NCBI GenBank assembly: GCA_015680685.1
Contig: MNCI01001938.1
Coordinates: forward strand, 1-64,000
DNA from: Gnetum montanum
Taxonomy: Eukaryota > Plantae > Gnetophyta
DNA: 64,000 nucleotides
Direction: 5' to 3'
Both the position numbers and the translations under genes were made by a program. Below are positions 1 through 41,138 of the stretch, one piece after another. The notes beneath the pieces are model-generated. The model had not been told where the DNA came from. It worked only from the letters and a program-made list of their open reading frames with translations, and did not search any database. Within the stretch, counting starts at the first letter, position 1, and the number at the start of each line of letters is the position of its first letter.

Positions 1-123
1 GTGGTAGTTTAACGTCATTTCGGACAGTGGCGTGTGCGACATCGACCGAATTAATACCAAATTTTCGGATTCCGTTTCGGGAAAGTTCTATTTTAATCCA
101 ATATCAAGTCGGCGATCTTCGCG

Positions 124-131
124 TATAAGTA
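124..131 (+). promoter_or_regulatory. TATA-like box of the antisense accessory gene (copy A)
   Basis: TATAAGTA ~180 bp upstream of ATG 307; positionally equivalent to TATAAATA at 16871 (B) and 62214-62221 (G, minus) and TATAAAT at 53573-53579 (C, minus). Confidence 0.5.
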
Positions 132-306
132 GGTGGTCTTTTGATGAAACTGGTTGTTAGCTATAGGAATTTGAATTTCACAAGGAAGAATAGAGAAAGA
201 AGCAAAGCAAAAGTAGAAAGAGCAAGGAGAAGGAAAATAGGCGACGGAGGCGTGTAACCTATCTAGTATCTGTAAGCAAGCTGTAAGAAACCCTGCAACT
301 ATCGTG

Positions 307-3300
307 ATGGCTCCAAAGGCAAAGAAGCAGAATGCCAAATTGGCAAAAATCGACGAAGTGCAGGCAAGCCTGAACCGTGTTTCGTGGGCGTTGATCGATG
401 TCTGCGACCCGACGCCTCTCAAACGGTAGGCCATTCTTTACGCTCGGCCTACATGGCTTTTTTTTTTGTTTCGTTTGTTTAAATATGTTTAGCGTGAATG
501 CGTGCATCAAATTATGGACCTCGGCTTAATGCGAGGGTTCTGATTAGGTTGCGTTCATTGCCGTTGTTAGAGACAGACCTTGCGTTCCTGCAAGGGTATG
601 GGCAATTTCGGCCTGGTTGCGTTTTACGATTTTTTTTGTTTTGTTTTTGTTACGTGTGGATGTATAGATGTAGATTTTTGAATGAGTTTTGGTGTTTTCT
701 ACAGCATCGCGCTGAAGCCCATCCTGCTTGTGCTGGATCTTGTTGGGGTTTTATGCTGGTTAAACCCTATTGTGCCAAATGTCCCTCCTCCGCACACAAG
801 AGTGCAGGGAAAAGCCATTTGGTACCGAAAGGGTGCGTTGGAATTTTTGCAGTTTTTACTGCGTAGATTCAGCATCATCATCTGGTCGCATGTGACCGGA
901 GATGTTTCCGGGGCCGTCCTGGAGCACCTATTGCGAGGGTCTTCGCAGGGGATTCTGGCCTACTTGACGGACGGGGCGGTTGACACGGGCAATCCCGAGG
1001 ACCGAGCACTCAGCTCTCGGGGAATGAGAAACTTGCAGTGGATCTGGGGTATGACCCACTTCAACTGCTACCACACATATAATACGTTGTTCGTGGCCCG
1101 TCATGTGTCAACGTATTTCCAGAACCCTCAAGGCACAGTATACTACGCCGGCGGGTAAGCAGATCTAGATGACTTTGTTTTATTTTTGTGAAAAGGATGT
1201 AAGAGGAAAAGTTTATGTAGGAAGAAAGGTTTTGGCTGTAGAGTGTAAAGTGAAATTACGCTATATTGTACAGGTTTTTTATCCGTGACAACAAACTAAT
1301 CGGCGACGGCGACGCGCTATCTTGTGCCGAAACGGCGATAACGCTGTTCACTGCAACGAATAACGTTCGTGCCGGCCTTATCGGGCAAATCGGCCACGAA
1401 ATGCGTGAGTACCACTCACGCTACGAGGAGGCCTTCAAGAAGTGCGAGAGCCTTGGGTGGTTGCATGAGGATTGGACGCTGGATCCGCCCCTCAGCGTCC
1501 AGGACGTGGAGATAGAGCTCCCGCAATTCCCGCTGCCGTTTGGCCCCGGTAAGGTTGTTGCGTGTTTAGTGCTATTGACTAGTTATGATTATTGTAGCAA
1601 GGTTTGTGTAATGTCTTACCTTTTGAGTTACAGTCCGGGAATCTCGGGAGATTACCTTAACAATTTCCGGCCGCGGGGCAAGAGATGTCCTCTTCCGTTA
1701 TGGGGACATTAAAGAGGCGCAGCGTTGGCTAGGCCACTCAGCGGCCCCAGCGGTGGTGGTTACTAACCTCCAGACTGCCGGACTGCTGCACCTGTTTTTA
1801 GCTGCCACTCCTGACGTTCCCGCCAGCGAAATGATCGGCTTGGTGGACTCCTTTAATGCGAAGGCCGACCGTTTCAGCACGCGCGTGCACAACGTGCGTG
1901 TGAATTTTGACATTAACGCACAGGTCTTCTCAGACCTGTTTGGTGTTCCTTCCAACGGCCTTCCTGTAAACGTGAAGGCCCAAAGGGGCGTCAAAGTGGA
2001 GGCGCTTCTGCAGGAGTGGGCCAAAGTCCCTAAGGATACTAAGGGATTCCCCTGTGAACAGTTTGAGCTGCCGACTGCCAAAACGCTGTATCCCCTTTTT
2101 CGGGCCCGTACCTTCCCCAAAACCCTCTCGCAAGCGCGGAACTTTTCAGTGGAACAAACACGTATTATGCGAGAGGTGCTGGAGGAGGGGGCCCGTTTCG
2201 ACTGCGGCAGTCATCTCGCCAAAGGTTTGCGGAGCGAGATGATCAAGCTTCAAGAGAAGCTTGAGTCTCGCTTCAACGTGCACCATGCCTTATTTATAGC
2301 CGTCCTCCGGCGGTTTGCGGAGTATTTGGTCATCCAAAAGAATGGGGTCTGGGTACAGCAGGACCGGGACCAGCTGTCCAAACCCTGGATCGCCCACATC
2401 CTCAACACTACCCGTGGGCAGGATCCGCCGGAAGGGATTGGAGAGTCAATGTCCGTGACTACCAAAGGCATGACGGCACCCCGAGTGCGGGGTCTCGACA
2501 GTGTAGGCGGGATAATGCCTACCTACACTGGCGATGCCTCGCGAGGGAAACGCTTGGCTGAGGAAATCGTGGAGCCTGCAGCTTGACGGAAGAGGCTCCG
2601 CGTTGCTGAGGTCCCTGGAGGCGAAGGTGGCCACACCGTAGGGCTCACGGTGCAGCGGACTAAGCCTCCGCCTGGTAAGTGTAAAGCCTATATACACAAT
2701 GCTTAATTTTGACTAGTGGAATCGTGTTCTAACGCATGAGGATGTAAATAGCAAAAAAGACAGGTCGATTGACCCCCGAAACAGGGGCAATGGTGTTAAA
2801 GCGTGGCGAGGGGGCCTCGATTTTGGAAACAGAGACCCCAGCTGCTAGCACGCGTCGTGCATAGCCCTCGGCACGGGGGGTGGCCCCAGCTACGGGTGGG
2901 AGCCACGTACAAATGGGGGAGGAGGCTCCTGCTACTGGAACAAGAGACGCGCAGACCCCGGTGCGTGACGTAGAGAAAAGTAGAGAAGACGTCGATGACG
3001 CTGCCACTGTCACCGGCAGAGGTAATGAGCGTATGTTTTTCGGGTTTTGCAAGAATCTGTAAACAGGTAATATCTAATCGAGTATGTTATAGGGGAAGGA
3101 GATGCCTCGACGTCGGCGGGCGCTAATGAAGCGTGGAGGGATCTCCCCGATAAGNGCTTTTTTTTTCTGTCAGGAGCTCACCTCCGATGGGACCCTGCGG
3201 AGCCCATTGACTTGGACACAGCAGAGCCTCCATCCGATGGGGCAGTCGTGCCACGCAACATTTATGACGCAATGCGTAAATGTGCGCTACGCTCGACACG

Positions 3301-4312
3301 CTCCGTGTGGGAAAGCAGAAATATTAACGAGGCCCTATGGAAAAAACTGCAGCGATCAGAATAGAGGGTCGAGTCCTTGACTAAGGAAGTCGAGGACCTG
3401 AGGGTGCGCTACGAGTTCCTACAGGCTCGCGTGACCGGCAACGAAGACTGGCGTACTGCTATGATTGATCACTCCCGTTATTGGACAGCGATCAGGAATA
3501 GCGTACAGACCAGCCGAGCGTTGGTCGAGCAGAGGATGCAAATAGAGCTCCTTGCTCAAAAGAGCCGAGACTGGAGGGACTACTGCGCGGGTGTTCAGGA
3601 ATGGGGTCAGAAGGAGAAGGACCACAAGCACGTGTACAAAAGGGAAAGCGCCGCCTATAGGAAACGCTACCGTGAGTCTGCTATAAAAGCACGGTCTCTG
3701 GAGGTCTTTGTGGATACTATCGGGGCGTCCGAAGCCTTCAAGAAGTTTGAAGAACAGGTGACGGTCACTGCTTCTCCAGAGAGAGCAATGGTCTTTCCTG
3801 GAAATCAAACTTCAATCCCTACCTTCTACCCAGACCCTCCTGCTTGGAGCAGCGTGGAGAAAGGAAAGGTAAAAGCAGGGATGGCTTTGGGCGAAGATGC
3901 GTGGCAAGACCTATCAGAGGACGAAATTATGAAGCGTTTGTGGGCTGGCCTAGATAAGCTTCCCTTTGCTGCTGAGGCTGGGTCATCTCGGGTGAGTTTA
4001 CGCATGGCTTAGCTAGCGCGTTTTAAGACATAATGTTGCCTGCTCTAATTTTTTACGTTATTTATGTTTCAGGTACCAGGAGGTGATGAAGATCCGCCCA
4101 CTGAGGGGCAGGAGGAGGAAACTATGGAAGCGGAGGTAGAACACAATGAAGGGCGTCCTGTGGAGCCATCGTTAGAAGGAGAGTCCCATGAAGAGACAAT
4201 CTTTCCAGGGGGAATATTTCCCGGAAACGATGACCTACTAGAGGACGACCTTATGGGTTTAGACTTGGAGTTGAAAGACACGGGCGATAGTGGCAGCATG
4301 GGTCACACGTGA
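307..4312 (+). CDS. Retrotransposon-borne antisense multi-exon accessory protein (~1,100 aa): FCP1/NIF-like HAD domain, plant transposon accessory domain, coiled coil, acidic tail. Exons 307-425, 705-1154, 1274-1548, 1634-2674, 2752-3021, 3093-~3150 (N at 3155), 3174-3991, 4073-4312
   Basis: Starts MAPKAKKQ. Every resolved junction is GT..AG and phase-compatible (phases 2,2,1,1,1,?,0), joining ORF-track pieces 682, 1266, 1753, 2880, 3377 and 4064. Three in-frame stops (TGA 2584, TAG 2862, TAG 3362) are each a single C>T from CGA/CAG. Homologous copies at 16871-21710 (+) and 48730-53580 (-). Confidence 0.85.
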
Positions 4313-4416
4313 CTGGGTTTTCTGGCACCATGTCACAAATATTTTGAAAGTCAAGGACGCTATAAACTTTGATTGACTATTTTATCATGTGTTCCTTGTT
4401 ACTTGTTCTATTGCCT

Positions 4417-4608
4417 TAGTTTAAGGCCGTTACAGGCCGAAAGCGTGAATAGTTTAAGGCCGTGGCGGGCCAATGCGTAAACACGTATACGATGTAAATG
4501 GTGCGTATATGCAAGAATAGAGGTGAGTGGAAACTACTAGTTTAGGGCCATGACGGGCCGATGCGTAAATGGAAATGAACAAACTAGTTTAAGGCCGTTG
4601 CGGGCCGA
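4417..4608. repeat. TAGTTTAAGGCC-N7-GGCC repeat cluster (4 copies) between the protease end and the antisense gene 3' end
   Basis: Units at 4417, 4450, 4538 and 4585. Confidence 0.85.
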
Positions 4609-4858
4609 TGCGTAAATGGGTAACGTAACGTAACCCTGGACATTGCGTAAAGTAGCAAATGCGTACCATGCGTAAGAGGCGAAGGCAAAAGGCGAAGCGT
4701 AAAAGGCAAAAGGCAAACTGTAAAGTGTAAAAAGGCATAAAAACAAAACGCGAAGCGTAAAAAGCATAAAAGCTCATAGTCATAAAGCACATAGGCATAG
4801 GGAAACTATTGACCAATAGATGCGCTAACTTACCTGCACGCACGTTGGAGAGCTTCGT

Positions 4859-5800
4859 TCAGCCATCAGCACGCAACTGCCTCTTGACGGTTTTTATGTT
4901 GACGGCTGCGTAAGGGCGAGGAGGTTTACAGTTCGACTCCTCTATGCTAACATCCGGGAATGGTAGGTCAACCCAGGCTAAACTATCAGCATTGTCATTG
5001 TCCTGTTCAGGGGCTCGGAGAGAAGGCTGGTCATCAGCCGTTTCGATCTCTGAACCCCGCTCTTCCTCAATGTTACTAACGGTCCTGGATGTGATCTCGT
5101 CGCCGCGTATGATAACCTCCCCCCCAGCGTAAGGCAGGTGTATCTCCTGATGGATAGGTGACGAGACTGCCCTCAGCTGAGCTAACCATGACCTCCCCAA
5201 GATCAAGTTGAAGCCTGGCATCTCCTCGACGACTAAAAACGTGGCTTCCGTGGGGAATTGATTCCCCGCCACAAACTCAATTCGCACCGTTCCTTTGACC
5301 TGAACCCGTGCTCCATTGAATGATTTGACACAGGCTGTCGTAGTGGGAGTGATCTGGTCAACCAAACCCAACCTATCCACGATGGAATAGGGAACGACAT
5401 TAGCAGCCGCGCCATCATCCACATGCACCCTCCGGATCCGATACTGGCCGACCCGGATGGTTATGAACATGGGCTCCGTCGTCACTTGACCTTTTTCTGG
5501 ATCATCTTTAACGGACTCGTCCAGAAAGGTCAGCGAGGTGGGCTTGGGTTGCTTGGCCTCAGGAGGAAACATAATAGCGTGTATTGCTTCCTCTTCAGCT
5601 GGCAAGCTGGCATCCACTGATATGGACGTCAACATACGTACCATAGCCTCGCGGTGTTCTCGAGAAGTCATCAAGAGGTCATACAAACTCAGCGTTGTGT
5701 TTTTCTGCTTCAGAGCTTGCTTAACCTGTGTAAAGGCGTCGAGGAGGTCTTTCTCCCGGCAGGTTGGTTTATCCCCCTTACTTTCCTCCACCCGGCCCAA
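4859..5800 (-). CDS. Retrotransposon aspartic protease region (copy A)
   Basis: RRVHVDDGAAANVVPY (D-x-G retropepsin motif), VKSFNG, FLVVEEMPGFNLILGRSWL..SPIHQEIHLP, typical of Tat/Ogre proteases. Confidence 0.9.
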   Translation of the reverse strand: MGRVEESKGDKPTCREKDLLDAFTQVKQALKQKNTTLSLYDLLMTSREHREAMVRMLTSISVDASLPAEEEAIHAIMFPPEAKQPKPTSLTFLDESVKDDPEKGQVTTEPMFITIRVGQYRIRRVHVDDGAAANVVPYSIVDRLGLVDQITPTTTACVKSFNGARVQVKGTVRIEFVAGNQFPTEATFLVVEEMPGFNLILGRSWLAQLRAVSSPIHQEIHLPYAGGEVIIRGDEITSRTVSNIEEERGSEIETADDQPSLRAPEQDNDNADSLAWVDLPFPDVSIEESNCKPPRPYAAVNIKTVKRQLRADG

Positions 5801-7968
5801 GAGACGGATCTCGCGAGGCGGGGGGTGTCAAAAGAGGGACTGTTCATCTTCTTACCGGCGGAGGGCTGCTGAATTTCTGTGCTTTTGTTATGCTTCTGGG
5901 GCATGGTCATAGGCACAGAGGCCAAGGGCCTAGGCTTCGGGAAGCCGAGCGTAGAACTGTTTTCCTCCTTCCGCTTAGGAGGCAATGCTTGATGGTAAGG
6001 GTTGGAGGTCTGCCCCTGCATGAGAGGAGCAGCCTGTGGCCGGGACACCCTAATGACGAAGGGCGCTCTCGGTGTGGGCGCAGACGAAGCTGCGGCTTGG
6101 GCTGTAGCGTGTGACTGAGGCCGTACCTGAGAAGGCGCCCGTATAACGAACGGCGGCCGTGAGGCCCCACCTGCTGCCGAAGAAATAGTTGGCCCCCTTT
6201 GTGGGCTGGCAGGTACGCGCAAAACAAAAGGTTGTTTTGGCGGCCCCTTACGCTCATCGTCAGTACTTACCACAGTGATTGTAAAAGGATCGTAACTTGC
6301 GTTTAACGGATCCTTGTATACATGTAATGTCTGGTTTTCCGGACGCGTGGGGTTACTGCTGTCTAGTGTCAGATGACCCTCGTCGATCATGCGTTGAATA
6401 TCATCTTTCAACGCCCAGCAGTAATCCGTGTTGTGACCACACATCTGGTGGTAGTCACAGAAACGGTCCAGCCGGAAAGATCTCGGAACCGCCGGCTCGT
6501 TGGGCAGAGCTAAAGAGGGGTCCTTCAGCAATTCACAGTTACGTCTGTGACGCTTCAGGGCCTCTTCGGACACCTTCTTAGTTTGAATGTGTCCTGCCGC
6601 CAACAGCTGTTTTAGCAGTTCGGAGTGTTTTACTGGTAGAGCCGCGTATTTTGAGCGGTCCTTGCGCTCAAAATTCGGCCTCGGCTGGGGGGCCGGTTCA
6701 GGGGCAGGCGCGGCCTAGCTGGTGCCGGCACCAGCCGTGGCCTCAGGTGGTGTTGTTGTCGGAGCTTTCTTGTTCTTGTTCCTTGCATTCTCAGTCAGTG
6801 CGGCCACAGTAGTTGTCGTTGCCTTGCCTTTATCTTTGGCTTTGTTGTGCATGTTCTTGTAAGCGATGTACGCCGGGTCCTTGCTAGCCTCCGCAGCATC
6901 TTGAATGCTCCGGACTTGAACGAAGGCTTGACGTATGTCTCCAGGGGAAAGATAATACAGCTTGGACTTGATAAAGTCGTTGACTGCTCCCTTGAATATA
7001 GCCAACATGTGGGAATTCGCGATCGGGTCACGAATCTCATTCAAGGTGGCATTCCAACGCTGTATGAACTTTTGGACTGGCTCGAGCGGGTCCTGTTTCA
7101 CTCCCATAAGCTGCTCCAATGTGACTTCCGGCTTCACATTGTACCGGAATCTGGTCACAAATTGGGTCAGCAACTCTTCCAAAGTTGAAATGGAAGAGCG
7201 TGGGAGAGCTCGGTACCAGTCTAGAGCCTTCCCTGTTAAGGACATCGCAAAGACTCTGACCAAAGTATGTGGCCATTGTTGCAGCAACAAGGATTCGGAT
7301 CTAAAGGTGGCCAAGTGTGTGTTGGGATCCCCCTCCCCATTATACTTCGTAAAATGTGGGAGAGACATCCCTGGCGGCAACGACAACACGGGGACCGCTG
7401 GATTAATTGGATCATCTTGGTAGAAATCCGTGATCTGAATGGTGTCAGATCCAGCGGTCTTAAGGCGTCGTACCTCCTCAGTAAGGGTTTGGATAAGGTG
7501 AAACGCTTGATCCAGACCTGTTGAAGGAGGCGTCTGTGCAGCAGGCATAGGAGCAGGAGGTTGGACTGGGTGAACAGTCCCAGGAAACTGGAGTGCAGGA
7601 GGTGGTTGGTTACCTGCTGGTGGAGCAGGGGTCCACGTAGGCTGAGAGACTTGCGCAGGTCCCCACCCGCCGATTTGTGACGGGGGGTTAACAACTGCCT
7701 GCTGCGGGGCATAATGATAAGTGTAACGAGGAAGCACCCGTGAAAATTGCGCCGCTGGTGCTGGCGGGGGTTGGGGATCGTAAAAGGCAGACGGATATTG
7801 TTGCACAGCAGGGTCAGTCCACTGACTTGTCGCGGGGTATTGAAGAAAGGGTGGTTGTGGCATGGTCAGAGCATGTTGCTGCGTCGGCGGGGGCAGCAAC
7901 CTTTGCGCCGAGTGAGTTGTCGGAACCTGAGGGATGGACTGAGGCGCAGTGGTCACCGAGATCCCCGC
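5801..7968 (-). CDS. gag: Gag (copy A): Pro/Gln-rich N-terminus, Retrotrans_gag core, Tat-type Cys/His knuckle; 5' end lies in the assembly gap
   Basis: PHFTKYNGEGDPNTHL..FAMSLTGKALDWYRALPRSSISTLEELLTQFVTRF and FCDYHQMCGHNTDYCWALKDDIQRMIDEG. ORFs 6715-7968 and 5710-6603 are in frame across one TAG at 6715. Confidence 0.9.
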
Positions 7969-8876: not shown

Positions 8877-10431
8877 CCACGGATCCGTGCGAGGGCTATG
8901 CTGGAAAAACAAATCCACGGCGCCCTGAACGGTCTTGTCGATCAGACAGGGACTTACGAGTTAGTAAAAGCAGTGACGATTACAGATTTTTGCGTGACGT
9001 GCTTTGTTGCGAGAGATTGTAAAACGGGGAGACAACAACGTAGATGGAGCGCAACGAAGATAACGCTAAAACGCCGGAAAGATGCTAATCGGGGGAGAAA
9101 AAGCGTATACTTCGCAAAGATCAAAGATCTATGTTTTAATGCTGGGTCTGATGTATATGTTTCCGTGTATATTACGTTACAACGGGAGAAAACCCCCAAT
9201 AACTGGGTGCAGAATGAGCGTAAAACAACAAGAAAACTGTGTGGACAGAAATCTGATCTACCTTGTAGACCCAAAGCCTAGGTGCAGGAATGGTCAAGCT
9301 CTGAAGTCTATCGATCTTTTGAATGATGGAACCTGCTAACTGGGCGAGACGACTCTGCAATTCTTGTTCTGCTTCTTTGCTTCGGGTAGATCTTTTGCTA
9401 AAACTCAAGCGTGCTGTGTTCTGTTTCTGCTAACGGATCGTGTTTGCAGCGATTATCAAAAGGTTGCTCTTGTTTCTCTGCTCAAAGGCGATGAGTGTTC
9501 CCTTGCTCAGAAAATGCTCTTGTCCTCTTGATCTGCTGTCAGCAAAAAGCGAGAAGTGCTCTGGTGCTCTGGTTCGTCAACTTGCCAACTTCTTCCTCTC
9601 TCCCCCCAAAAAAAAAGGTCCCTTTGTATATTTGTCAGTCGGAGTATTTATAGGCCGCGACATGCGCAACCTTGATGATGTGGGCCCGAATGTCGCAGAT
9701 CCTGTTGGCGCGATTCTTTTAAGTCGAACTGCGACTATGCACAACACGCTCATCGAACTGCGACTACGCACAACACGCTCGTTTGCGTGCTGTGCGTGTA
9801 AAGAGCGGGCCCATGGGCGTGTGTCGGCTGTGTTTGCGCTCATTTGCTTTGTGTTGCGTGTATGAACGCACTGACGTCAAAACAATGAGTTCAAGATTGT
9901 TTTACGCTCACCACGCAGCTGTGCGTAACAAAGCGTAAATGTAACGTACGCTCATTACGCAGCCGTGCGTGATGAAGCGTAAACCAAGTTTTAACTTACG
10001 TTCATCACACAACTGCGCGTTATAAAGCGTAAACAATGCATAACTTACGCTTACCACGCAGCGGCGCGTGGTGGAGCGTAAGGAGCGTGCAACTTTGAAT
10101 CATGACCCACGCACTAGTACGCACCGCTACGCAACGAGCGTAAAGGCCACTTATGTTATGCGCCGCGAGAAAAAGTACCAAGTCGTCGTACCTTTCTGGA
10201 TTTTGCCTTCAACTGCTTTGGAGCTTATTACGCTCATCACGCTGCGGTGCGTGATAGAGCGTAAACTTGTCCTTGAACAAATTCGCCTTTGGCTGTCTCG
10301 GAGCTTATTACGCTCATCACGCTGCCGTGCGTGATAGAGCGTAAACTCGTCCTTAGCCAAATTCGAGGCGTGTTCCTGCTCAAATTACGAATCTCCGCCT
10401 GAGGCCGACCCATAATTTTCACGGTGTTTCA
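8877..10431 (-). repeat. 5' LTR of copy A (3' end in gap); TATA at 9645-9652 (minus)
   Basis: Terminus GGTGTTTCA at 10431 matches the other family LTR termini; 8877-8960 is homologous to 25770-25850. Confidence 0.8.
9900..10347. repeat. Array of ~38-bp imperfect palindromes (TTACGCTC-ATCACGC-N6-GCGTGAT-AGAGCGTAA) in LTR U3
   Basis: Units near 9900, 9946, 9995, 10044, 10117, 10228 and 10308; the last two are nearly identical. Confidence 0.8.
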
Positions 10432-11998
10432 GTGCTGATAGACATGAAGGAGCTGATGCTTGCTAGATTGAGAGTTGTTATGTTGTGCATGTGCAAGTGT
10501 CATGCTCAGGTGACAGAGTGGAAAAAACTTTTGAAGGCTCTAATGCTATGATTCACCACACATCAACATTTTGCTTGCCAATCTTCTACCAAGGCCAACT
10601 GCAAAAGCCAACCTTTAAAATGTCAATTACTAGGGTATTTATAGAGCCAGGGTTGGGGGGGGGGGAGAGAGAGAGAGAGAGAGATGTGGTTTGGATGCCA
10701 CATGTCTTGGACCCCACATAACATGAATGTGGATGTGTCACGTTGATGTGCTACACTCGATGGGACAAGAACAGGGACTGAAAATCTACCAAACTGTGAC
10801 CATATTTCCTAAACCACATGTGCCAAAATCTAAAGAACTATCATGTTTTTACAAAAATTCCTGGAACCAATGCAAATTGGAGCCTACACTTTGGGACTAC
10901 ATCTTCCCTGCTCTTTCGAGTAAGGTCAAGTGTAGGGATAATTTTAGGGACCAACAGGGGGTGTAAAAACAAAAAAAGCCCAATGATTTTGGCTGTCGAT
11001 GAGATGCTAAAGTAGGAATAAAGATCAATGATGAGTTCTAGGAAATTTTAGAGGCATTTAGAGGATTTTTCCAAGTATTATTCAATCTACACTATCAAGT
11101 GTAACGAGGCATAGCATGAACACTTAAAAATGTTTTGCAGTTTTGGCTTGCTATGCTATCTATGCTGCTTAGCATAGTAGAGCAGAACACTTATTTTTAA
11201 TGAATTTTGTCAAAACATTGAAGACATCACTCTGAGATTCATCAAGGTAAGCAACTTTAGCAACCAACAACTACACATTTTATGTTGAAAGAGCCTAATA
11301 CCTCCTAGTTTCATTCTTGTGAAACTTTTGATCATGGCACCTCTGCTACGCTGTGCTATGCTACACAATATAGCATAGCGTAACATCTAATTTTGAACAA
11401 ATTTTAACCCAACTTGCAATGTTTTGCCATGGGATCTTGATCATGCTCTAAGGACAAAGTAAAACAAGTAGCTTTAGATGTCAAAGAATTGCAAAATGCA
11501 CCTTCTATGTCTAGTTCAACACTTAGGAAAATTTTATTCACGCATGGACTACTATGCTGTCTATGCTATGCAGCGTAGCAGAGTATAACAGGTCCAAAAA
11601 TAGAAAATTTTCCAATCTGTTTTATCCATCTTAAACACATTTGGCAACTCTTAGCCTAACATCTAGGTGGATTGGCAATCGAGACATGTGTCAATTTGGG
11701 CAAGTTAGAGAGCGTAGCAAGCTTGACGGCCCAGAAGATAGAAAATTTGATAAATTGTTTAATCCATCTTTAGTGTCCCTTTTTTGCAAACTAGCCTTGA
11801 AAATGGGTGCTATGTTGACTGTGTCAAGGAGCATAGTAGACAAACTTATAAAAATCTTTATAGAAGTTAGGACTTCTAGGGTGCCATGCTATCTATGCAG
11901 CTTAGCGTGACACCACACTTGGAGAAATTTTGCCTAGGTCTCAATGCTTGAACAGATCTGATGCTGAGTCATGAGAGCCCAAAATTGATGGTGTTTCA
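10432..11998 (-). repeat. Probable 3' LTR of copy B, truncated by insertion of copy A
   Basis: Colinear and highly similar to 26172-27690; ends GTTTCA at 11998; TATA at 10636-10643 (minus). Confidence 0.8.
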
Positions 11999-13482
11999 CT
12001 GGCCACTCTCTATAGAGTCTTTGCTTGAGAGATGCTGACAAAGAATACAAAACACCTTGATGAACACAACACCAACACCATTCGTCAATGTCCACTTGGA
12101 TGATGCTTTGCTATGCTTGAGAGTGCCAGGGAAATGAAGTATGGTGGAGAACAAGGGATAGGTTTGAGGAGATAATGGATGAAAAAGGAAAGATGTAGGG
12201 TGCAATGCCATGAGAATCGTTGCCATAGTGTGATCCCTTATCAGAGTGCTTGTGAGGAAGTCAGCATGTAGAAGTGTCCTTCCCTTTGGAGTTTGACTTC
12301 TCATTGGAGTGCTTACGAGATGGTTGATCCAAGGCCAGACTAGTTGAAAAATGAAAATTGTATCATTTGACCTAGGCATTTGAATTATCCCATTTTTCAT
12401 CATTTTTTTCTTCTTCCTATTTTCCTTTTGCATTGCCAGGTGAACTATACACCATATTTGCTTAGAGGCAACCAGGTTGCATTTGTAGGATAGGTGTTTC
12501 CTCCTTGAGATGAGTTGTGTTACATCCATTTAAGGCTTTGACCAGTTCACAAAGGCTCCCCATGGGATGAGTTGTGTTACATCCATCATGGGTTCAGCAG
12601 CTGACTGTGAGAAATGTTACATGTATGTTGGGGCAGCTTACAAGGGATGAGGAAGATTGCAAAATCAAGAGGTAGAGGTTAGCTTGGTTGAGGGGATATT
12701 AGGGATATGCACTCTCAAGTAGCTAGGTGAGCCAAACAAAACACATCAGAATAATGTAGTGTCTTGCCAATGTAGTGGAATACACCCTTGAACAACGTCA
12801 CCTAGGCTTCATCCTACAAATTCAACAGAGAGAAAATTAGAAAAAATAACCACCATGTGAAGTGAGGGTGAATTCTTGTCTCCTTGGGACACTAGAATAG
12901 CTGCAAGTGCTATGTCATATGTGTGCAATGTCCAAAGTAGGAACGCTAGTGCAGGTGTCAGCGGTAGCAAGTTAGAAGGCTCCAACGACCATACTGGAAG
13001 TAAGCACTCAAGAGGCTAGGAACAATGGTGATGTAGGTGCTCAGGAATCCTCATCAAAGGTAGGAGCCAAGAAATTTAATTGCGAGGTAAGAAGCCCAAT
13101 GACTAAATGATCTTTCAGACTCTGGTGGTTGTGAGGGTTGGAGGATAATAGCATTGTGGCTAGGCAACAATACTTTTGGGACTCTAGCAGGAGGTGCTGA
13201 TGGTGGGAGCTACAAGCAAGATGATTAGAGATGATGGTAGTGGCTCTGGAAGGTTAGCAACATGCCCAATGACATCTATAGAAGTTCAGCAAGATGCTAA
13301 TGATGGTGACATTGCAAATGTTCCAGAGGGTTTTTCCTTGGTGGCGTGAACTTCATTCTAGAACTACAATAACCCACCCCAACTTGCCTAGGAGGATAGG
13401 TAATAGAAGATTGGAAGTGTGCCCTCTCACTTGTTCACAAGATCACATGTGTTGGATCAGAAATGTTACCTTACAAACCCAA

Positions 13483-13880
13483 TTTTAGGTCTTGGTAGAT
13501 CATTGGCTATGCTAGTTTAAGATCCCAATAGACCTTGGTCCTAGTTTAAGGTCTAGGCAGACCATGATGTGCTAGCTTAAGGTTCCAGTACACCACTCTG
13601 GTAGTTTAATGTCATAGCAGATGGTGGATGGCCAGTTTAATGTCACAGTAGACCATGCTATGGGTGCCAATTTAATGTCATAGCCTAAGGACATGCTATG
13701 GGTGCCAATTTCATGTCATGGCCCAAGAAAATGGTGTGCTAGTTTAACATCATGGTGGATGCTTTGTGCTAGTTTAACATCATAGCAAATGAGCTGTGCC
13801 AGTTTAACATCATCGCAGATCCTCTATGCTAGTTTAACATCATAGTAGATGCACTATGCTAGTTTAATGTCATAGTGGAT
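13483..13880. repeat. Tandem ~29-bp repeats (CTAGTTTAA[G/C/T]GTCATAG..) downstream of integrase
   Basis: About a dozen imperfect units sharing the TAGTTTAA core with the spacer repeats. Confidence 0.85.
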
Positions 13881-13921
13881 GATCTTCTTACCTTGATTTA
13901 TTATCAACGTGACATTGCATG

Positions 13922-16377
13922 TCAGGTGTAATACAGTTTTAGGTATAGGTGATTGACAGGATTAGAAAACTTGTTGCCATATATATTAGCCATCTTGAAT
14001 GCCCCATTTTCATATGCTTTTGTCACCAAAAAAGGCCCTTCTCAGTTAGTTGAGAATTTTTTCACAGGCTTGTTAAAAGCCTTGAGGACTAGATCCCCTT
14101 TTTTGATTAGGCATTAATGTAGATTGCAATGATGCTTTTGCCATTGTTTGTCTTGATACCACTCGATGCGATTAAGCATTTGGATGCACTATTTCTCCAT
14201 GGAGTCAAGATCAATGATTCTTGACTCGTTGTTTTTAGCCTCATCCATAAAATTTGAGAGGATCATTTGGAGTGACGGGACCTACAATCCAAGAGGTAAC
14301 ACTACTTCAAATTCGTATAGAAGACTATATGGTGTCTTACTTTTGGTAGTTCTACACATTATGCGATAGGACCAAAGCACATAGATGAGTTGCTTATCGC
14401 ATCATCGCTTGTTACTATTGAGCATCTTCTTTAGAAGGTTGACAATGGCTTTATTGGTGGCTTCTACTTGGATCTTTTCTTAAGGATAGTAGGGTGACAA
14501 GAAAGAGTGTTTAATGCTAAGGTTTTCATAAAAGGCTCTAGTTTTTGCACTACTAAATTAGGGCCCATTGTCTATTATGATAGTGATAGGAAGGCTGAAT
14601 CATGTTACTATATTGTCCAAAATGAATTTGCAAACCTATTGAGATGTGATCTTCCTAAGGGGAATAGCTTCTACCCACTTCGTAAAGTACTTATTTGGAG
14701 TAATAATGAAACTATGCCTTGCCGAAGACTTGGATGTTATGGGCTCTATGATGTTTAGTCCCCATCATTGAAAAGGCATGTGATTTGTGTGGTATGAAAC
14801 TCAGTAGGCAATACATGTATTAGATTCCTATGGTGTGGACATATGTTGCATGCCCTAGCCTTAGAGATCCAATCGTGCTCCATATAAGGCCAATAGTAGC
14901 TTAGACACCTAATTTTTGCCACCATAGCCCTAGGAGCTATGTGCCCTCCACATAGTCCCTCCTGGATTTGATTAATGATTTTTTGGGCTTCTTCACCACT
15001 TATGCAAGTTAGCAGTATCCCATCATAGGATCTACGACACAAAGCATTGTCGCCTATGAGGACATACTATCATGGTTGTTTTCTCATTGTGTCTTTTTCG
15101 GTGGACATTAGGTTTTATGGAGGTTCACCAGTTGAAAATACGCTTTGATGTCATCATACCATTCTTGAGTGTGGGCCACACTTACAGACGTGATTTTTAC
15201 TGTGTGAACGATAGGGTTAGTGCATTTTACTATTTAAGTGGGTAAGTTAGCAAACAAGTATGGTGGCATGCTTAAAGCTAACATGGCTAACGTGTTGACT
15301 ATAGTGTTTTCATTATAGTGGATGTATTGAACATCCAAGATTGCAAACTATTTTAATAAGTATTTTTCCAAATCAAAATAAGGTTGTAGGTGTTGTGCTT
15401 TACAGGCGTAGACCTCTATGACTTGGTTAATGACCAAGTGCAAATGTCCTTGAATTGCTAAATTTCAAATCCCTAACTCCCAAGCTGCTAGAATGCCCCT
15501 AAGGAGACTCTTGTATTCTGCTACATTATTCATGCAAAGAAACGTGAAGTGGTACATGAAAGGTTAGATCTCTTTGGAGGGAAATGTGAAAATAGCAGCA
15601 AAACTACCACCTTGTGTGGTTGAGGTATCGTCAAAGTGTAAAATAGCTTTGAAGTTTGCAATTACTATGCTTATATTGCTAACATGCTCGTTTATAAATT
15701 CGGGTTCTATTATTGCCTGGTCATCTGTGGGTAAAGTCATAAGTTGTGTGGCTATTGCTTGACCCTTTGTAGATGACTGTACTTCATAGTGTAGGTCAAA
15801 TTCTATAGTTATTTCTTTCCACTTGGCTATCCTACTACTTTCATATATATTGGTTGTAATGGCCCTATGTATGTTATTTTTGTAAATAATGTTGACTTGG
15901 CTATGAAACAAATAGTATCTCCATTTTTAAAGTGAAAATACTAAAGCAAGGTAAATATTATTCTACAACATTGTATTTTTCTTCGTAAGCTATCAATGCA
16001 TGATTCAGGTAGTAAACAAGAATTTTAGAGCCATCGTCCCTCTTTTGATAGAGTAGAGTAGCAATGGATGTATCTGAAGTTGCAAGATAAATGTAGAGTA
16101 GAGAAAAGCTTTAAAGTTCTCACCTCACCTTTGCATGTGGTCATAGAAATTTCTATAAGTGGATCCTCAATTACATCATTAGCTTCCAAGTATAAGGCTT
16201 GGACCAAATGTTTTGGCCAATCTAGTGATGTTTCTAAGGATGCTACATTGGTGTTACAGGGAGGTAGCTCAAAGTCCACAAGCTCTATGTTCAGGCATCT
16301 CATGAATCTTGCATGGGGTCCTGTAAAAATTAAAGGTGAATGGAGATCATCATGCATGGCCATTTTCCCAAGAGACC
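13922..16377 (-). pseudogene. pol: pol remnant of copy B: pre-RT linker, RT deleted, RNase H, archaeal-type RNase H, integrase
   Basis: LYIYLATS..VYYLNHAL (RH); ILHFDDTS..CMNNVAEYKSLL..GHLHLVINQV (aRH); IQEGLCGGHIAPRAMVAKIRCLSYYWPYM, YFTKWVEAIPL and EGPFLV (INT). Many stops and frameshifts. Confidence 0.85.
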
Positions 16378-16870
16378 CTGCAAAATAGCCAACAAACAAA
16401 ATACATCAAGTGGTACCTGCCTCACATAGCAACATGAAGTTAAATGCATACAAAGTAATTATGCAATATCTCAAAATTGCTAGTTTAAGGTCTTAGTGAA
16501 CTGTCACTATGCATAAGATGTAAAGGAAATTTTAAAATTTTTAGTTTAAGGTCATAGTGGACTATCATGGTGCCTACAATGTAAAGCCTTGAGCCGAATT
16601 CAAAGGCTAAAAGTGAGGGGTTGAATCAAATGTTTAAAAAATTTTCTTTTTTTTTTTGCAAATCTATGTGCTACACTACATGGAACATGGGATGTCCTGT
16701 GTTATGCATGAGACATGGGATGTCCTGCATTATGCATGGGACGTAAATCATCCAACATTACGCATGGGACATGGGACGTTCTACATCACGTGCGAGACAC
16801 ATATCATCCTACGTTATGTGCAGGACATGGGACATCTTGGAAAAGTGACATGTCATGTTACCTTGAAGGG

Positions 16871-19800
16871 TATAAATAAGGGTTTACCCATGGTAAACCT
16901 ATGATTTTCATTGTTAGAGCTTAATATTCTAGAGCATAGTGTAGTTTAGAGAAGAGAGCATAGCACTTGTAGAGCATAACCACCGATAGGCTAGAACTTG
17001 ACAACAAGACAATGATGCACAGAAGTAAGCATAGATACCAAGGCCTTGTAAATGTGGATGAAGGGTAGTGCACCTTATGACATCTCGCTAGAGCATTTAT
17101 TGAAGACTAATAGGAAGCATCATCTACCAGTAGGTCATTACACTACCTTTGTTTATGTCACATTTTTTTTGAAATGGGGGCAATCTTCCAAGTGGGATTG
17201 TTATCGTCACTATGTCCGCTGTGACCACCGTGCCCTAGTTGTTGTGGCCACTACACTGTGGTTGCTGCCACTATGGACATGGCTGTAGCCACAACTACTA
17301 TGCTATGGCTACTGCCACCACCATGGTAGTTGTTGCCATGGACATTATGCTATGGCTACGGTTGCCATCACCGTGGCTAGGAGTGATGCACATTTTCCTC
17401 TTTCTCTTTTTGGTTCTACACTAAGGTAAAAACAAGGGTGTCTTGAACAATGGTATAGAATGAGGGTTTAAAGCATCCTATGTAGTGTAATGCATGTGGG
17501 GAGGATCTTTTTTTGATACTATGTATTTTCGTAATGGATTTTTTTGTGTTCCATGTGGTGGAATAGGGCAAGGGCTTTGCAAGTGTTCCATGTTTGATCT
17601 TAAGCCGTGTTGTCCCTAATAGTGTAATTAGAAAGCTAGGAATGTTTGCTTACTTGCATTGCTACATTCTCTATGAGTGTAACGCTTACTACGCTAAATG
17701 AGACATAGCCACTACGCTACATGAGATGTAGCCACTATGCTACATGGGACGTAGTTGCTACGCTATGAAGGTCGTAGCCATTACAGTGCATGAGACATAG
17801 CTGCTACACTACATGGGATGTAGCCACTATGCTACAAGGGATGTAGCTACTATACTACACATAGGGTTCAATTGCTATGCTACATGGGATGTTATATTTA
17901 CTATGTTGTGTGAAAAGTCATAGGGATGGAACAAATACTTAGAAATGTTTTTGATCAATTGATGGTCCCATAGTTATCATATTCCATACTTAGAAAAAAA
18001 TTTCATAAAAGGTTGCTACACTTTACAGAAGTGTAAATGACAGTTAGAGAATTTTTCCAAAGATTCTTTCCTTCAAAAATTCTCTTATTGTGAACTAATG
18101 TTTTCATTGTGAAATGTAGGGTTATGCTGAAGCCAATCCTGATCGTGATTGAGTTAGTAGGGATTCTATGTTGTATAAGTGCCCTTATGCCTAATGTCCC
18201 CCCACCAGATGCATGAATAGGGAACCAGGAAGTCTGGTTTCAAGAAGGTGCATGAGAATTCTTAGAATTCCTGCTTCGTCACTTCAGTGTAATGATATGG
18301 TTGCACTTGTCTACTGAAACAACAGGCGTCTTGATTGAAACATTATTACCTGGAGTGAATCAAGGCATCATAAAATTCATGACAGATGGATCTACTAAAG
18401 GGGAAGAGGTAGGGGGTTCAAGTCAATGTCCACAAGGCTTAAGACTCTTGCATTGGATTTGGGCGATGCTAGAGTTCAAATGTTACCATAAATATAACAC
18501 ATTATTCATTGCTCGCCATATGGGTACATTTTTTCAAAACCCACCTAGAACCATCTACTGTGTTGGTGGGTGAGTCCTATTAAGATGACTAGACATTTTA
18601 TTTTGTTTATCTTGTATGATTTGGAATGATTATTATGTTCTATCAGTTGCTAGCTATTTGATCAATAAGGATGGTCTTTATGATAGAGAGGGGTTGTTAG
18701 CCTTGGATTAAACAACTCTACAAGAGTTATCCTCTACTAAGAACATGTGTGCTAGTGTTATAGAGCAACTTGTGGCCAATTTTAGAAATTATCCAACCAA
18801 GTACTCTAAATTTAATATGAAGTATGAGGAGCTTGGGTGGTTGGATGGTGAATGGACATCCCATTGAATACCCACTGCAGAAGAAGTACTAGTGCAAATA
18901 TGATTGTTCCCCACACCATTCACACCAGGTGAGTTATATTATGTGCTTCTTTTCATGTATTCTTAATTGATTTTTTGTGGCTAATTTTATTCTTGGTTAT
19001 TACAATAGCAGCCAAATCTAAGGAGGTTACAGTAATTACTTTAGGGCTTAATGAGGCTAACCTCCTCTTTAAGTATGATGAGGTTGATGAGTCACAATGT
19101 TGGCTATGCAATGGAACCCCAACCACAATTGTTTAGAAGGTTTAGGAGGCTGGGCTCATGCATCTCTTTCTGGCTATAAACCCAAGCATCCTAGCTATAG
19201 AAATGATTTCCCTTGTCAGTTCCTTTATAGAAAGTGCCAACCACTTTTGCACATGAGTTTATAATGTGTGAGTGGTATTTGAGATCACTGATAGCCTCTT
19301 TTTAGATCTCTTCGGTGTTCCTTTTGATGGTTTTCCTATGGGGGAAAAGACTAGTAAGGATCTAAACCATCGAGGAGACATAGAAGAATAGCTAGGGACC
19401 AACAAGGATTGCAAGGGTATTTATATGAAAAAGGTTAAATTGGAGGTAGCCTAGCAAATTTACCTCATCTTCTAGGCTCATACTTTTCCAAAGCTACTTT
19501 CCCAAGGGAAAATTCTTTGGGTAAAGAAAGCTTGGATTATGAGGAACGTAATGGAAGAGGGGACACATTACAACTGGGCTAAATATCTTTCAGAAGGCTT
19601 ACAGGCTGAAATGATCAAGTTGTGTGTTAATCTTGATACACATTTCCATGTGCATTTTGCATTTGTTGTAGCTTGTCTATGTAGATTTATAGAATTTTTG
19701 GTGGTCTAGGAGAATGGGAATTATACCTAGATATCCAAACCATGGACCCACCACATATTTCATGCCACCCAATCTCAAGACCCTCCAGAAGCTATCGAGG

Positions 19801-21710
19801 AGTCTTTTTCAATGATGACCAAGGATCAGGTGGGACCATCCTTTCATGCACATGATAGCTTTGAAGAGGCTCATCCCACTAGCATAGGCAATGTAGTGAG
19901 GGGAGCACACCTTATTGCAGAAACAATAAAGTCAATGTTGCAGATTAAGAAGCCTCATCCTATAGAGAAGCCTTCGTGTGTGAGCGAAGAAAGGGGAAAA
20001 GGCTATGTATCCGAGTCTAGAACATGTAGTCTGAGCTCATTGGTAAGTATCCCTTAGCTAAGTTAGTTGTTTCTTTTTTATTTTTTATGCATATATGTTG
20101 GACTAGTACCCTAACTTTGGCTTATGCTTGGTAAATGAGGAATAGGTTTCTGCTTCCGAAGAAGAGGCCCCTACTATAGAAGAGGAGGCCCTTACTGTAG
20201 AGGAGGGGGCCCCTACTATAGAGGAGAATTTTGTAGATTATGTCCCATAACCCAAGGGGCATATGATAGTTGAGGATGCTACTACATTCTTAAGGCATCT
20301 TGAAGAAGAAGGGTTGCATTTTGGGGATGGTGAGTCTACTGATTTTTCTGATAGTGTGTTGATGGGTGATCCCCCCACTCTCACCCCCAAGGATTTGTTG
20401 GATAGGAGCTTTGCACTATAATTTATGTTATCCTCTCACTTTCTCTCTCTCCTTTATAATGCTAATGTGCTTTATTTCATAGCAAGTACTACTTTTGCTA
20501 AGGGCCCTGAATCTTCATCTACTTTCCACCTACAACCATGGGTGAAAACCCTAGATAAGTTTGCTTTTATGGAAGGTGTAGTAGATGACATGATTGATTG
20601 CCTAAAGCAAATTGACCCTGAGATAGGTGTGTGTGGGCTAGTGCATTTATTTTTTTATGTTGTTCCATTTTTCTACCATCTCATGATTAACGCTTCCTTA
20701 TTTTTGGTATAACAACTTCACAAGTTAAATGCGACCCAAGATAGGCAGTTGAAGTCTAAGCTGTGCCTGAACTCTCTCCAGAAGTAACAAAGGTGCCTCA
20801 TCATGTATATGATGAAACAAGAAAATGTATGCTACACTTGGCATGATCATTGTGGGAGTGTAGACATGTTAATGAAGACCTCTAGAAAAAAGTTTAGAAA
20901 CTTAAAAGGAAAGGACGAGTTAGGTAGCCAAGCTAGAAGACTTGTGGTTGTAAAATGAATTCCTAATGGCTCGTGATAATTCTAACAGTAGTTGGTGTAC
21001 AACCATAATTGATTATGCTAGATATTGGTTTGTCATATGAGGCAAAAATGAGGCCACACACTAAGTAATTAAAAAATGTCTAAAAATGGATCTCTTGGCA
21101 CAAAAGAATAAGATTGAAAAGATTATAGTGACAAGGTATATGAATGGGGGTAGGCACAAAAGAATCACAAACATATGTATAAAATGGAGCATGCTGCTTA
21201 TAGCCAAAAGTACTGATATGCATCTATAGAAAGGCATGATCGTGAGCTGTTCCTTGATGCAATTGGTGCTACCCAGGCCTATGATAAATTTTCAAAGTAT
21301 TTAGTGGTTAGTGAGTCTCTAGAGAGGGAAATGACCATGCCTTCTAGGGAGGCCAGATTTTCCACCTTTTCTCCAGGGCCACCCACATGGATGGCTATGG
21401 AGAAAGGAAAGATTTTAGCAAGCATTGATTTAGGAGAAGAAGACTGGGAAAATTTAATTAAGGAAGAAATCCTTCGATGCTTAGCATCTGGCCTTTACAA
21501 GATACCACCAGACATGGATGTGGGCTCATGTTAGGTTAGCCAGGTTTTACCTTATTGCAATTTATTTCATGATAGCCTTATGCATTATCTTGCTCACTCA
21601 TTGGTTCATTATTTTGTTCTTGATTCATGCAGGATCTAGATGATGATGTAGGACCTAGCGGGGCAATAGGTAAAGACACAAGAGAAGACTCATAGCATAT
21701 TCATTAATTC
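16871..21710 (+). pseudogene. Antisense multi-exon accessory gene, degenerate copy in B
   Basis: TATAAATA at 16871; VMLKPILIVIELVGIL, FKCYHKYNTLFIARHMGTFFQNPPRTIYCVGG, DLFGVPFDG and PPTWMAMEKGKIL align to copy A; splice donors at equivalent positions (~18570, 18929, 20043, 21535). Confidence 0.85.
17690..17900. repeat. ~21-bp tandem repeat (CCACTACGCTACATGGGATGTAG) upstream of exon 2 of the B antisense gene
   Basis: About 9 imperfect units are visible. Confidence 0.8.
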
Positions 21711-21882
21711 TTTTTTTTTTAAATTTTGAAATAGAACCCTTGTTGGGTGATGTTGCAACTCTAAATGTGGCCATAATTTTGGACCATGTATTTATAATTT
21801 AATGAAAAGTGAAGTGCTTGTTTTATTTCCTTTGCCTAATTTTTTTGTTAATGTACTTAGGCCCCTTGTGGGCCCCATGCTC

Positions 21883-22140
21883 TAGTTTAAGGCCATTTCG
21901 GGCCATACAATAGTGTAAGGCCATTCCAAGCCATAGCTAGTTTAAGGCCAGTTTGAGCCATGGCTTGTTTAAGGCCATTTCGGGCCATACTATAGTGTAA
22001 GGCCATTCCAGGCCATAGCTAGTTTAAGGCCATTTTGAGCCATGGCTTGTTTAAGGCCATTTTAGGCCATAGCTAATTAATCTTAGAGAGCGGGTTGCCA
22101 GGTTTAGGCCTTGGTAGGCCATACGATAGTTTAAGGCCAT
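21883..22140. repeat. TAGTTTAAGGCCATTT-GGCCAT tandem cluster downstream of B protease
   Basis: About 9-10 units of ~26 bp, including a near-perfect 3-unit duplication. Confidence 0.9.
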
Positions 22141-22253
22141 TCCTGGCTGTCACAATATAACTAACGTGAAAGGAAAACACAATGAAAAATTGAAATTGTA
22201 CAAACAAAATTGTTAAAGATAAAAGATTCATAGGAGTAAAGTAAGGTTATATC

Positions 22254-25226: not shown

Positions 25227-25679
25227 TTTTTTTACTATGTCAAAAAGGACATAATAAAAAAAGAAACTTGTGAGAAATGGTGAAATATAGTAAAATTTGA
25301 GCTAAAACACTTAAATAGGTAAGCTACATAAAAAGTATGCTAAAAATGACAAAGTCTGGAAAAATTGGAAAAGTAGTGGTTTATGCTACTATGCTAGATG
25401 GGACTATTACGCTGAGAGAGTTATTATGCTACATGTGTTATGCTATATGTGTCACGCCACATGGAACACAGAGAGCTTAATGTAGTACACCATTTTTGGC
25501 TACTGGGATCCAATTGTACCAATCAAAACGTAAACAACCCCTACACTAGCCTGTTATCTAGCTACTGCCATAGCGGGTCCATAGGGGTGTTACATTTACG
25601 CTAGCCTATTGCTAGCGATAGAGGTATATAAGGCACACAAGACTACCCATAGTACATAGAAGAGACATAGAGGTTTAGG

Positions 25680-25696
25680 CCCTCCTTCTAGTGCCA
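25680..25696 (-). promoter_or_regulatory. Primer-binding site of copy B (TGGCACTAGAAGGAGGG)
   Basis: TGG-initiated motif a few bases inside the LTR end, conserved at 43064 and 56826. Confidence 0.7.
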
Positions 25697-25701
25697 AACA
25701 T

Positions 25702-39814: not shown

Positions 39815-40244
39815 ATTAAATGAAAGCTTAAAAGACTAAGAATAGTATAAAAACATGAGATGAGTTATGGTAGCATGGATGAATGATAGAGAAGGTGTAA
39901 TGGAGTTCCAAATTGAGGTCATAAGAAGTCCCTTGTAGAATTTGTGTTTAAAATGACTTGAGAGGATCGATACTTAGTCCAACCAAAATCATCCACTTCT
40001 AATGACTTTGCATCAGCACTCTAAGACTAATTAAATGAAAGCTTAAAAGACTAAGAATAGTACAAAATAATGAGATGAGTTATGGTAGCATGGATGAATG
40101 ATAGAGAAGGTGTAATGGAGTTCCAAATTGAGGTCATAAGAAGTCCCTTGTAGAATTTGTGTTTAAAATGACTTGAGAGGATCGATACTTAGTCCAACCA
40201 AAATCATCCACTTCTAATGACTTTGCATCAGTACTCTAAGACTA
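39815..40244. repeat. Local tandem duplication, 2 x ~215 bp
   Basis: Near-identical units starting ATTAAATGAAAGC at 39815 and 40030. Confidence 0.9.
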
Positions 40245-41138
40245 ATCAACCCACTTGAGACACAAGAGTGCTTTCACAAGACAACCACCATTCCACAAAG
40301 AGAAGAAAAGAGAAGTAGGAAGCAATAGATAGGACCTTATTTAGAGGGGACCTTCAGGCATATGTGCATGTCATTTGAATCCCATAACTAGTGCTTGTAG
40401 CTCATTTATTTGTCCAAGGGGTGTGCTTTGAATTTCCATTATTTTATTTTTTTCATTTATTATTATTATTTTTGAAATGCGAACCATACCATGCAAGGGC
40501 TTATTTGTGTTGAAGGGGTTTGCTTTGAATTTCCATTGTGTTTTTCTAATGGGAACCACACCATAAAATGACTTATTTAACTTCCTATTAGTGGTTGGTA
40601 TGGAATGGTAAGAAGTTTATGAAAAACATCCAAGCACTCAAGTAAGTAGAAGAGTATAAAAAGTATTAACTCCCCTTGAAGTCACACCCTTTACAAACCT
40701 TTGAATCCTTTCTAATTCTAGAACTACCAAGGTCACTAATTGATTAAAGGTTTCTTTAATGGAAGGGACTTCAAATTTCTAGAATAAGGAAAATCATAAA
40801 GTTCATTAAATGGGTGGATGACATTGAATCACTACCTATTCCATGAAAAATAAACCATGTCAAAGACATCAAACATTAGAATTCAAAAATAGAAACTAGG
40901 CATCGACAATCACAACATTAAGCACAAACATCAATAGTAAACAACAATAGCGGCACTATCTCTAATGATAATAAGGTAGTTTTATTAGCAATATAAGAAA
41001 ATATCACACTTGAATTAAAACAAAATAAAGTAAAATATATAAAATAGTGTAAAATAATCAAGAAAGGTTCAAAGGTACTAACAATGATGAAAAATTAGAA
41101 AAATCAAAAATTTGTAAAATAAATAATTTGTAAAAATA

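Follow-up and report, generated by a model that had tools for sequence, protein, structure and literature searches.

A putative multi-exon gene that runs antisense to the gag and protease genes of a Ty3/gypsy retrotransposon encodes, in its second exon, an FCP1/NIF-type HAD domain whose acid/base Asp and motif IV Asp are both missing. The gene was found in a stretch of 64,000 nucleotides (the window), where three elements, A, B and C, carry a copy of the domain. In the reading that we favour, tentatively and at somewhat short of an even chance, the domain of this backward accessory gene is a catalytically dead phosphate-binding module that docks on a phosphorylated host protein.

Family and fold of the exon 2 domain

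Exon 2 encodes an FCP1/NIF-type HAD domain, as the original prediction had proposed; the assignment is upheld by Pfam, by a profile of host proteins, by HHalign and by fold matches. The exon is bordered by an AG (702–704) on its 5′ side and a GT (1155–1156) on its 3′ side, and the peptides that had first suggested the domain all lie in frame +1 (706–1155). A profile search with Pfam NIF (PF03031) matched exon 2 with an E-value of 5.1e-4 and 20.2 bits, under the curated gathering cut-off of 21.8, and matched neither copy B nor copy C at 0.05. Searching 1.84 billion representatives with phmmer returned 13 matches, eight of which carry PF03031; five of these eight are named land-plant proteins, and two are unnamed. 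The remaining five of the 13, repeat-protein artefacts with summed repeat scores, were dropped.

A profile built from host NIF domains alone aligned with nearly the whole exon (profile positions 5–156) at 55.0 bits, compared with 5.8 bits for the best of 1001 controls (1000 shuffles and the reversed sequence). The host-family profile also recovers UBLCP1 (1.2e-9) and SCP1. HHalign gave exon 2 a probability of 98.5% (E 1.5e-15, 141 columns), and the four motifs are present in order along the full-length profile alignment. Among Atlas neighbours, NIF clusters ranked top (0.93, 191 shared features). Word-index protein searches with exon 2, at near and longer lengths, returned no match, no solved structure was matched by the exon 2 sequence alone, and scans of metagenome-contig and viral-contig loci recovered no relative of the gene. 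Protein P0020, from which the NIF domain is absent, was excluded from later alignments.

As modelled, the domain takes a HAD fold of the SCP/FCP type. The alignment-guided model of exon 2 reached a pLDDT of 73 and a pTM of 0.71 with 16 alignment rows, 13 of which are host NIF proteins, so that the fold is not independent of the sequence result; single-sequence folding was poor (pLDDT 43.6). Foldseek ranked SCP1 first (4ygy, E 5.7e-6), followed by CTDNEP1, Tim50 and Fcp1 at lower ranks, and VIA-align likewise placed SCP1 on top (1t9z, Z 12.7, rmsd 2.8, 131 aligned), with CTDNEP1 (Z 11.1) and UBLCP1 (Z 11.0) as runners-up. SCP1, FCP1, UBLCP1 and Tim50, the structures named for comparison in the original prediction, are thus all among the fold matches of this NIF-guided model. 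In this model, the fold is common to exon 2 and to SCP1, CTDNEP1, UBLCP1, Fcp1 and Tim50, at 13–22% sequence identity.

The antisense gene and its host elements

The gene lies opposite to gag and protease in element A, for which the window contains the following features:

124 to 130, plus strand: TATA-like box of copy A (TATAA[AG]T)
307 to 425, plus strand: exon 1, starting MAPKAKKQ, with a basic N-terminus and a phase-2 donor at 426
705 to 1154, plus strand: exon 2, FCP1/NIF HAD domain, from profile and fold matches
1274 to 1548, plus strand: exon 3, a linker with no family assigned, kept in B and C
1634 to 2674, plus strand: exon 4, a domain of ~300 residues with no family assigned, 40–43% identical in B and C
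2752 to 4312, plus strand: further exons with provisional borders, comprising a linker, a coiled-coil-like stretch (by eye), a C-terminal region and an acidic tail
4862 to 5827, minus strand: aspartic protease of element A (PF13650, E 8.4e-4; PF13975, E 9.1e-4)
5713 to 7968, minus strand: gag of element A (PF03732, E 1.8e-8), with a stop at 6715–6717 and an N gap upstream
10406 to 10431, minus strand: 5′ LTR start of element A (TGAAACACC start motif), within the 3′ LTR of element B

We infer that the gene would have its own TATA promoter and that its transcripts, opposite in sense to the genomic RNA, would be spliced. The sequence TATAA[AG]T recurs 141–183 bases 5′ of the ATG in four copies (A at 124, B at 16871, C at 53579 and E at 62221), and B, C and E share a similar exon 1 of 40 codons. 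Exons 1–4 of copy A join in one frame that is open for 598 codons, A, B and C have GT donors at matching positions for both exon 2 and exon 3, and exon 2 measures 150 codons in both A and B. Within 2752–4312 the linker is of low complexity and the C-terminal region is conserved, with 33–42% identity to B and C in the frame 3365–4009. Copy A has in-frame stops at 2584–2586, in exon 4, where B and C read through, and at 3362–3364; because of these and of the stop in gag, it is probably non-working.

Exon 3 gave no significant match to the C-terminus of host NIF domains. Its role as a completion of the NIF domain, suggested by eye, was rejected (HHalign probability 0.2, no gain in score). Exon 4 matched nothing in Pfam (PMD, PF10536, and DUF1985 included), NCBIfam or the PDB, and a word-index protein search and a profile search against structures were also empty; its Atlas neighbours DUF1985 (0.88) and PMD (0.86) are leads only, with no significant family match.

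RNA reads from four runs of a related organism, 682 in number, fall on 1–7900, mostly at 90–95% identity, and cover exon 2; their loose ends at 329 show the Met-Ala-Pro-Lys start retained in related copies. No spliced joint is found among the reads listed, and some of them span intron positions. Because of the missing joints, the intron cover and a strand skew shared by gag and the gene, we do not take these reads as evidence of expression.

Element A is a young element that inserted into the 3′ LTR of B, an older relative (10431). Its pol/RT side lies outside the window, and the layout was therefore read from B and C:

10435 to 27690, minus strand: element B, with two LTR starts (27690 and 11998) that are 79% identical over 1583 columns
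18121 to 18570, plus strand: exon 2 of copy B, 47% identical to A, with 2 stops
41139 to 54880, plus strand: element C, in the order LTR–gag–protease–antisense NIF gene–RT
51627 to 52076, minus strand: exon 2 of copy C, 41% identical to A, with 7 stops

Element B has the order LTR–gag–protease–antisense NIF gene–RNase H–archaeal-type RNase H–integrase–LTR, with Pfam matches to RT_RNaseH, RVT_3, Integrase_H2C2 and rve in that order; its RT is mostly missing, and a pre-RT piece is left. In element C the protease (47128–48039) is followed by an RT (54008–54880) that is interrupted by another LTR start at 54893. Copies B and C are decayed, with observed/expected CpG ratios in exon 2 of 0.26 and 0.05, respectively, against 0.81 in A.

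By its domain order, the element is an Ogre-like Tat LTR retrotransposon. Element B shows the Ogre/Retand (Tat) trait of an archaeal-type RNase H between the RNase H and the integrase, and in both B and C a non-pol stretch, here ~5.9 kb long, sets gag-protease apart from RT, which is an Ogre trait. Both the position of the archaeal-type RNase H and the separation of gag-protease from RT are described for Ogre (Tat) in passages of PMC6317226 and PMC4408406. Pattern searches found no clear tRNA-Arg primer binding site. The RNase H order is reported for angiosperm Ogre and Retand only (PMC6317226); if the host is a gymnosperm, the order would be unexpected in view of that report.

Several other structures were seen in the window. 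Arrays of a 27-base-type unit with TAGTTTAAGGCC occur in A, B and C (4417–4617, 21882–22075 and 48256–48490), each in the interval that separates the protease from the 3′ end of the antisense gene, and the unit spacing at 4583–4617 is variable in the RNA reads. Element D sits within the RT of C at 54893. Copy E (61763–63549) has the TATA box, exon 1 and RT, lacks the NIF exon and adjoins an integrase zinc-finger region (60967–61452); it looks like a deletion chimera or a nested insertion. A 217-base perfect inverted repeat (31568–31784 and 32098–32314, 313 bases apart), with a single N flanking one arm, could represent either an artefact of assembly or a foldback element of recent origin. A tandem pair of 215 bases with 98% identity lies at 39815–40246, and an RT fragment ~39% identical to the RT of element C at 33265–33833.

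Active-site residues and selection

Four motif positions of the FCP1/NIF domain can be located in exon 2 of copy A, where residue numbering for motif IV was taken from an alignment with SCP1 (1ta0):

736 to 747, plus strand: motif I, D-L-V-G, nucleophile Asp retained, Val in place of the second Asp (Ile in variants)
883 to 891, plus strand: motif II, W-S-H, Ser present in A and C
1027 to 1029, plus strand: motif III position, Arg where host domains have Lys, in A, B and C
1096 to 1104, plus strand: motif IV position, A-R-H against D-D-S in host domains, with A131 aligned to SCP1 D206

The two broken positions, V13 and A131, correspond in the alignment to D98 and D206 of SCP1, which we take to be its acid/base and its Mg ligand. 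In HAD proteins, loss of both the acid/base and the Mg-binding Asp leaves little or no turnover, and the exon 2 domain, judged from its residues, most likely supports no phosphatase turnover. SCP1 proteins with Ala at the D98 and D206 positions are represented in the PDB by 3l0y, 3l0b (phosphoryl intermediate) and 3l0c (trapped phosphate), according to the deposition titles. In PMC12785426, activity is ascribed to the DxDxT motif. SCP1-type active phosphatases have DxDx[T/V], whereas both motif I and motif IV are broken in the element. DxDx[T/V] is absent from motif I, which reads D-[L/I]-[V/I]-G in A and in the variants listed (40 of 56), and the Mg-binding Asp of motif IV is replaced by Ala131 in A and B. 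An intact DxD with an intact DD, which would have spoken against a dead domain, occurs neither in A nor in those 40 variants.

The copies differ in motif I, which reads DLVGV in A, ELVGI in B and KLVGI in C. The acidic pair of motif IV is AR in A and B, and a T followed by a stop in C; the motif II Ser position is Leu in B. The Glu of copy B may mark an older subfamily, and the Lys of copy C is best read as decay. Since both copies carry stops and have low CpG ratios, their residues weigh little. The original prediction of dead motifs therefore stands for the missing second Asp in A and for the AR at motif IV in A and B, but not for the Glu and Lys at the first Asp, which come from the broken copies. 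In the young, high-copy family the first Asp is retained, with only a silent variant among those listed.

Plant DxN FCP1-homology proteins (KAM0004709.1, GAB2223845.1) are the best true matches, with 27–39% identity over the matched stretches; they share with the element the four motifs in order and spacing, and the second Asp of motif I is missing in both. D-x-N-G is found in the first domain of 8/8 NIF relatives, and none of these eight first domains has lost the first Asp of motif IV. Where the plant proteins have Asn, DDS and, at motif III, Lys, the element has Val/Ile, ARH and Arg, and exon 2 thus lacks this family's combination of D-x-N-G at motif I and DD/DN at motif IV. The element domain further differs in lying inside a retrotransposon and in having no detectable counterpart to the C-terminal portion of the host domain. 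As the nearest host family is already without the second Asp, the element-specific step would be the loss of motif IV rather than the whole inactivation, and the loss of the second Asp may be older than the capture. The description of the domain as CTD-phosphatase-like accordingly holds for its NIF/HAD fold but not for its closest kin, which are the plant DxN family with D-x-N-G in 8/8. Four of the relatives, the Asteraceae proteins P0002, P0005, P0006 and P0007, carry NIF domains as a tandem pair in which motifs I and IV of the second domain are degenerate, and two of these four also carry DUF724.

Sequence variation points to a domain that is very probably under purifying selection and not decaying. 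Searching a 481-base segment of the exon 2 region in each of four related organisms, we found 1484, 1529, 1388 and 1303 contig records covering exon 2. Among the 40 of 56 variants listed, 26 are silent and 14 are replacements, against an expected silent share of 24–31% (P at most 1.1e-5; crude omega 0.17–0.24); none of the 40 makes a stop and none is an indel, while the other 16 may include changes at the motifs. In the same 40, D11, R108 and R132 have silent variants only, S61 and A131 have no variant, and V13 changes to Ile only. Between A and B, silent sites of exon 2 are saturated (pS 0.82) and pN is 0.32, and V13, R108, A131 and R132 are identical. The mostly silent variants, together with four residues held in common with a copy that is saturated at silent sites, argue for selection on the domain; because these four residues have not changed, the absence of both the acid/base and the motif IV Asp is also supported as a family trait. 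The expectation that the domain is retained rather than decaying was borne out by the silent excess within the young family and between A and B.

These patterns largely refute the view that the domain is a neutral, decaying passenger, acquired once and copied with the element. Stops do occur somewhere in the gene in all three copies of the window, and the RNA reads listed include no spliced molecule; against this, silent change far exceeds replacement inside the young family and also from one subfamily to another, exon 2 has 150 codons in A and B, and the splice donors are kept. We regard such a passenger as scarcely credible.

Haloacid dehalogenases carry out metal-independent hydrolysis for which only the first Asp is needed. 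Exon 2 could in principle still encode an enzyme of unusual chemistry, such as a hydrolase that works without metal and needs the first Asp alone, or one with a DxN-family activity. The retention of the first Asp in the high-copy family (among the variants listed) and the conservation of the nearest host family in spite of its missing second Asp would fit this view. We nevertheless consider it very improbable: the first Asp of motif IV, kept in 8/8 host first domains, is gone in the element, and the nucleophile position is occupied by Glu in B.

A somewhat unlikely but more serious competitor is a dead HAD fold that serves as a phosphate-independent scaffold or protein-binding surface, its old active site filled in. 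The NIF domain of Tim50 is a protein-binding scaffold, and Tim50 is among the fold matches of exon 2. The homology and selection evidence is the same for this alternative, the Arg in the metal site may merely plug that site, and in copy B the first Asp is replaced by Glu and the motif II Ser by Leu. However, B, the source of both substitutions, is decayed, whereas the young family keeps Asp11, Ser61 and the basic motif III residue (40 of 56 variants listed).

Proposed function, origin and known counterparts

The kept Asp, Ser and basic residues lead us to favour a phosphate-binding module over a plain scaffold or an odd enzyme. The motif II Ser, the basic motif III residue and the new Arg132 could still hold phosphate, and binding of a phospho-ligand by the exon 2 domain is a prediction from these residues to which we give somewhat less than an even chance. 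Used as a binding module, the dead HAD domain would dock the accessory protein of the element onto a phosphorylated host protein. That product would comprise ~1000 residues: a basic N-terminus, the HAD domain, the 300-residue domain (perhaps PMD/DUF1985-like), a linker and a coiled coil. Because of the antisense orientation, its introns would stay in the genomic RNA, so that a multi-exon gene could travel with the element. The putative benefit would most plausibly be to aid transcription of the element against silencing.

More specific versions are less probable. The polymerase CTD is one candidate ligand among many and, with the nearest family not being CTD phosphatases, a quite unlikely one. 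The suggestion in the original prediction of a decoy for polymerase CTDs or silencing factors drew no support from the analysis. It is also doubtful that a Tat/Ogre-like lineage has converted the spacer between its protease and RT into an antisense, spliced transcription unit for a pseudophosphatase fused to a PMD-like domain, a protein that would read phosphorylated polymerase or chromatin factors and counter silencing, in a mirror image of the PMD–phosphatase module of the host. MAIN/MAIL1–PP7L and MAIL3, as described in part of PMC7156037, combine a PMD with a phosphatase module in the control of transposon and gene expression and offer an analogy only; unlike the product discussed here, they are host proteins, belong to the PPP family rather than to HAD and act for silencing.

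The original prediction also had the domain captured from a host gene, a claim that our tree leaves without a donor that can be placed. In this tree of 15 rows (three element copies and 12 host domains, with no outgroup and none from the host lineage), the three copies lie outside all 12 host domains on a branch of ~3 changes per site; the proposed comparison with host FCP1-homology domains thus does not show the element domain nested among the 12, in a tree without an outgroup. The NIF domain may instead have been acquired from another mobile element or virus, an origin that fits any function but that we consider unlikely. The long branch outside the sampled host domains would agree with it, as would Atlas neighbours that include NIF clusters with phage members and a giant-virus cluster at 0.85. 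On the other hand, the best true sequence matches are land-plant proteins (5/8 named as such), and the branch comes from a tree with few rows and without host-lineage genes.

Reviews (PMC7264820, PMC11963269 and PMC4408406) treat the source and role of the extra ORFs of plant LTR retrotransposons as open questions, since most of these ORFs resemble nothing known. The extra ORF described here has a recognisable enzyme fold that has lost two catalytic Asp residues, keeps the rest of its pocket and is under selection; the family that carries it reaches very high copy numbers in at least four organisms, and its accessory protein is directly testable for activity, ligand and partner. By its location in the protease–RT gap it forms a further class beside the 5′ and 3′ extra ORFs: the published Tat extra ORFs, in the portions of PMC6317226 and PMC4408406 that describe them, lie 5′ or 3′ of the polyprotein, whereas this gene is antisense, multi-exon and within the gap. 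Tat extra ORFs with a PMD and coiled coil design (from a section of PMC4408406) are close to the product of the element, which has a possible PMD-like domain.

The novelty is a NIF domain in an antisense gene of the protease–RT gap; extra ORFs, and a captured enzyme in the orchid AlkB case, were already known. Literature searches found no report of a NIF domain in a retrotransposon, and the domain is absent from the extra-ORF domain table of PMC6317226 (Additional file 4), which takes in a domain only when it reaches E 1e-10 and occurs in at least five elements; a weak NIF match may be recorded in other supplements of that paper or in Steinbauerova 2008/2011. An Ogre-related Gypsy element of orchids likewise carries a host-type enzyme domain in a Tat element, an AlkB m6A demethylase in an extra ORF; as reported in PMC9289625, the orchid AlkB has its catalytic residues intact and shows activity in vitro, whereas the NIF domain described here has lost them. 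In addition, 95 Athila elements have an extra ORF with a "possible lysine decarboxylase" domain (pfam03641; PMC6317226, Additional file 4), another enzyme fold fixed within the Tat/Athila superclade.
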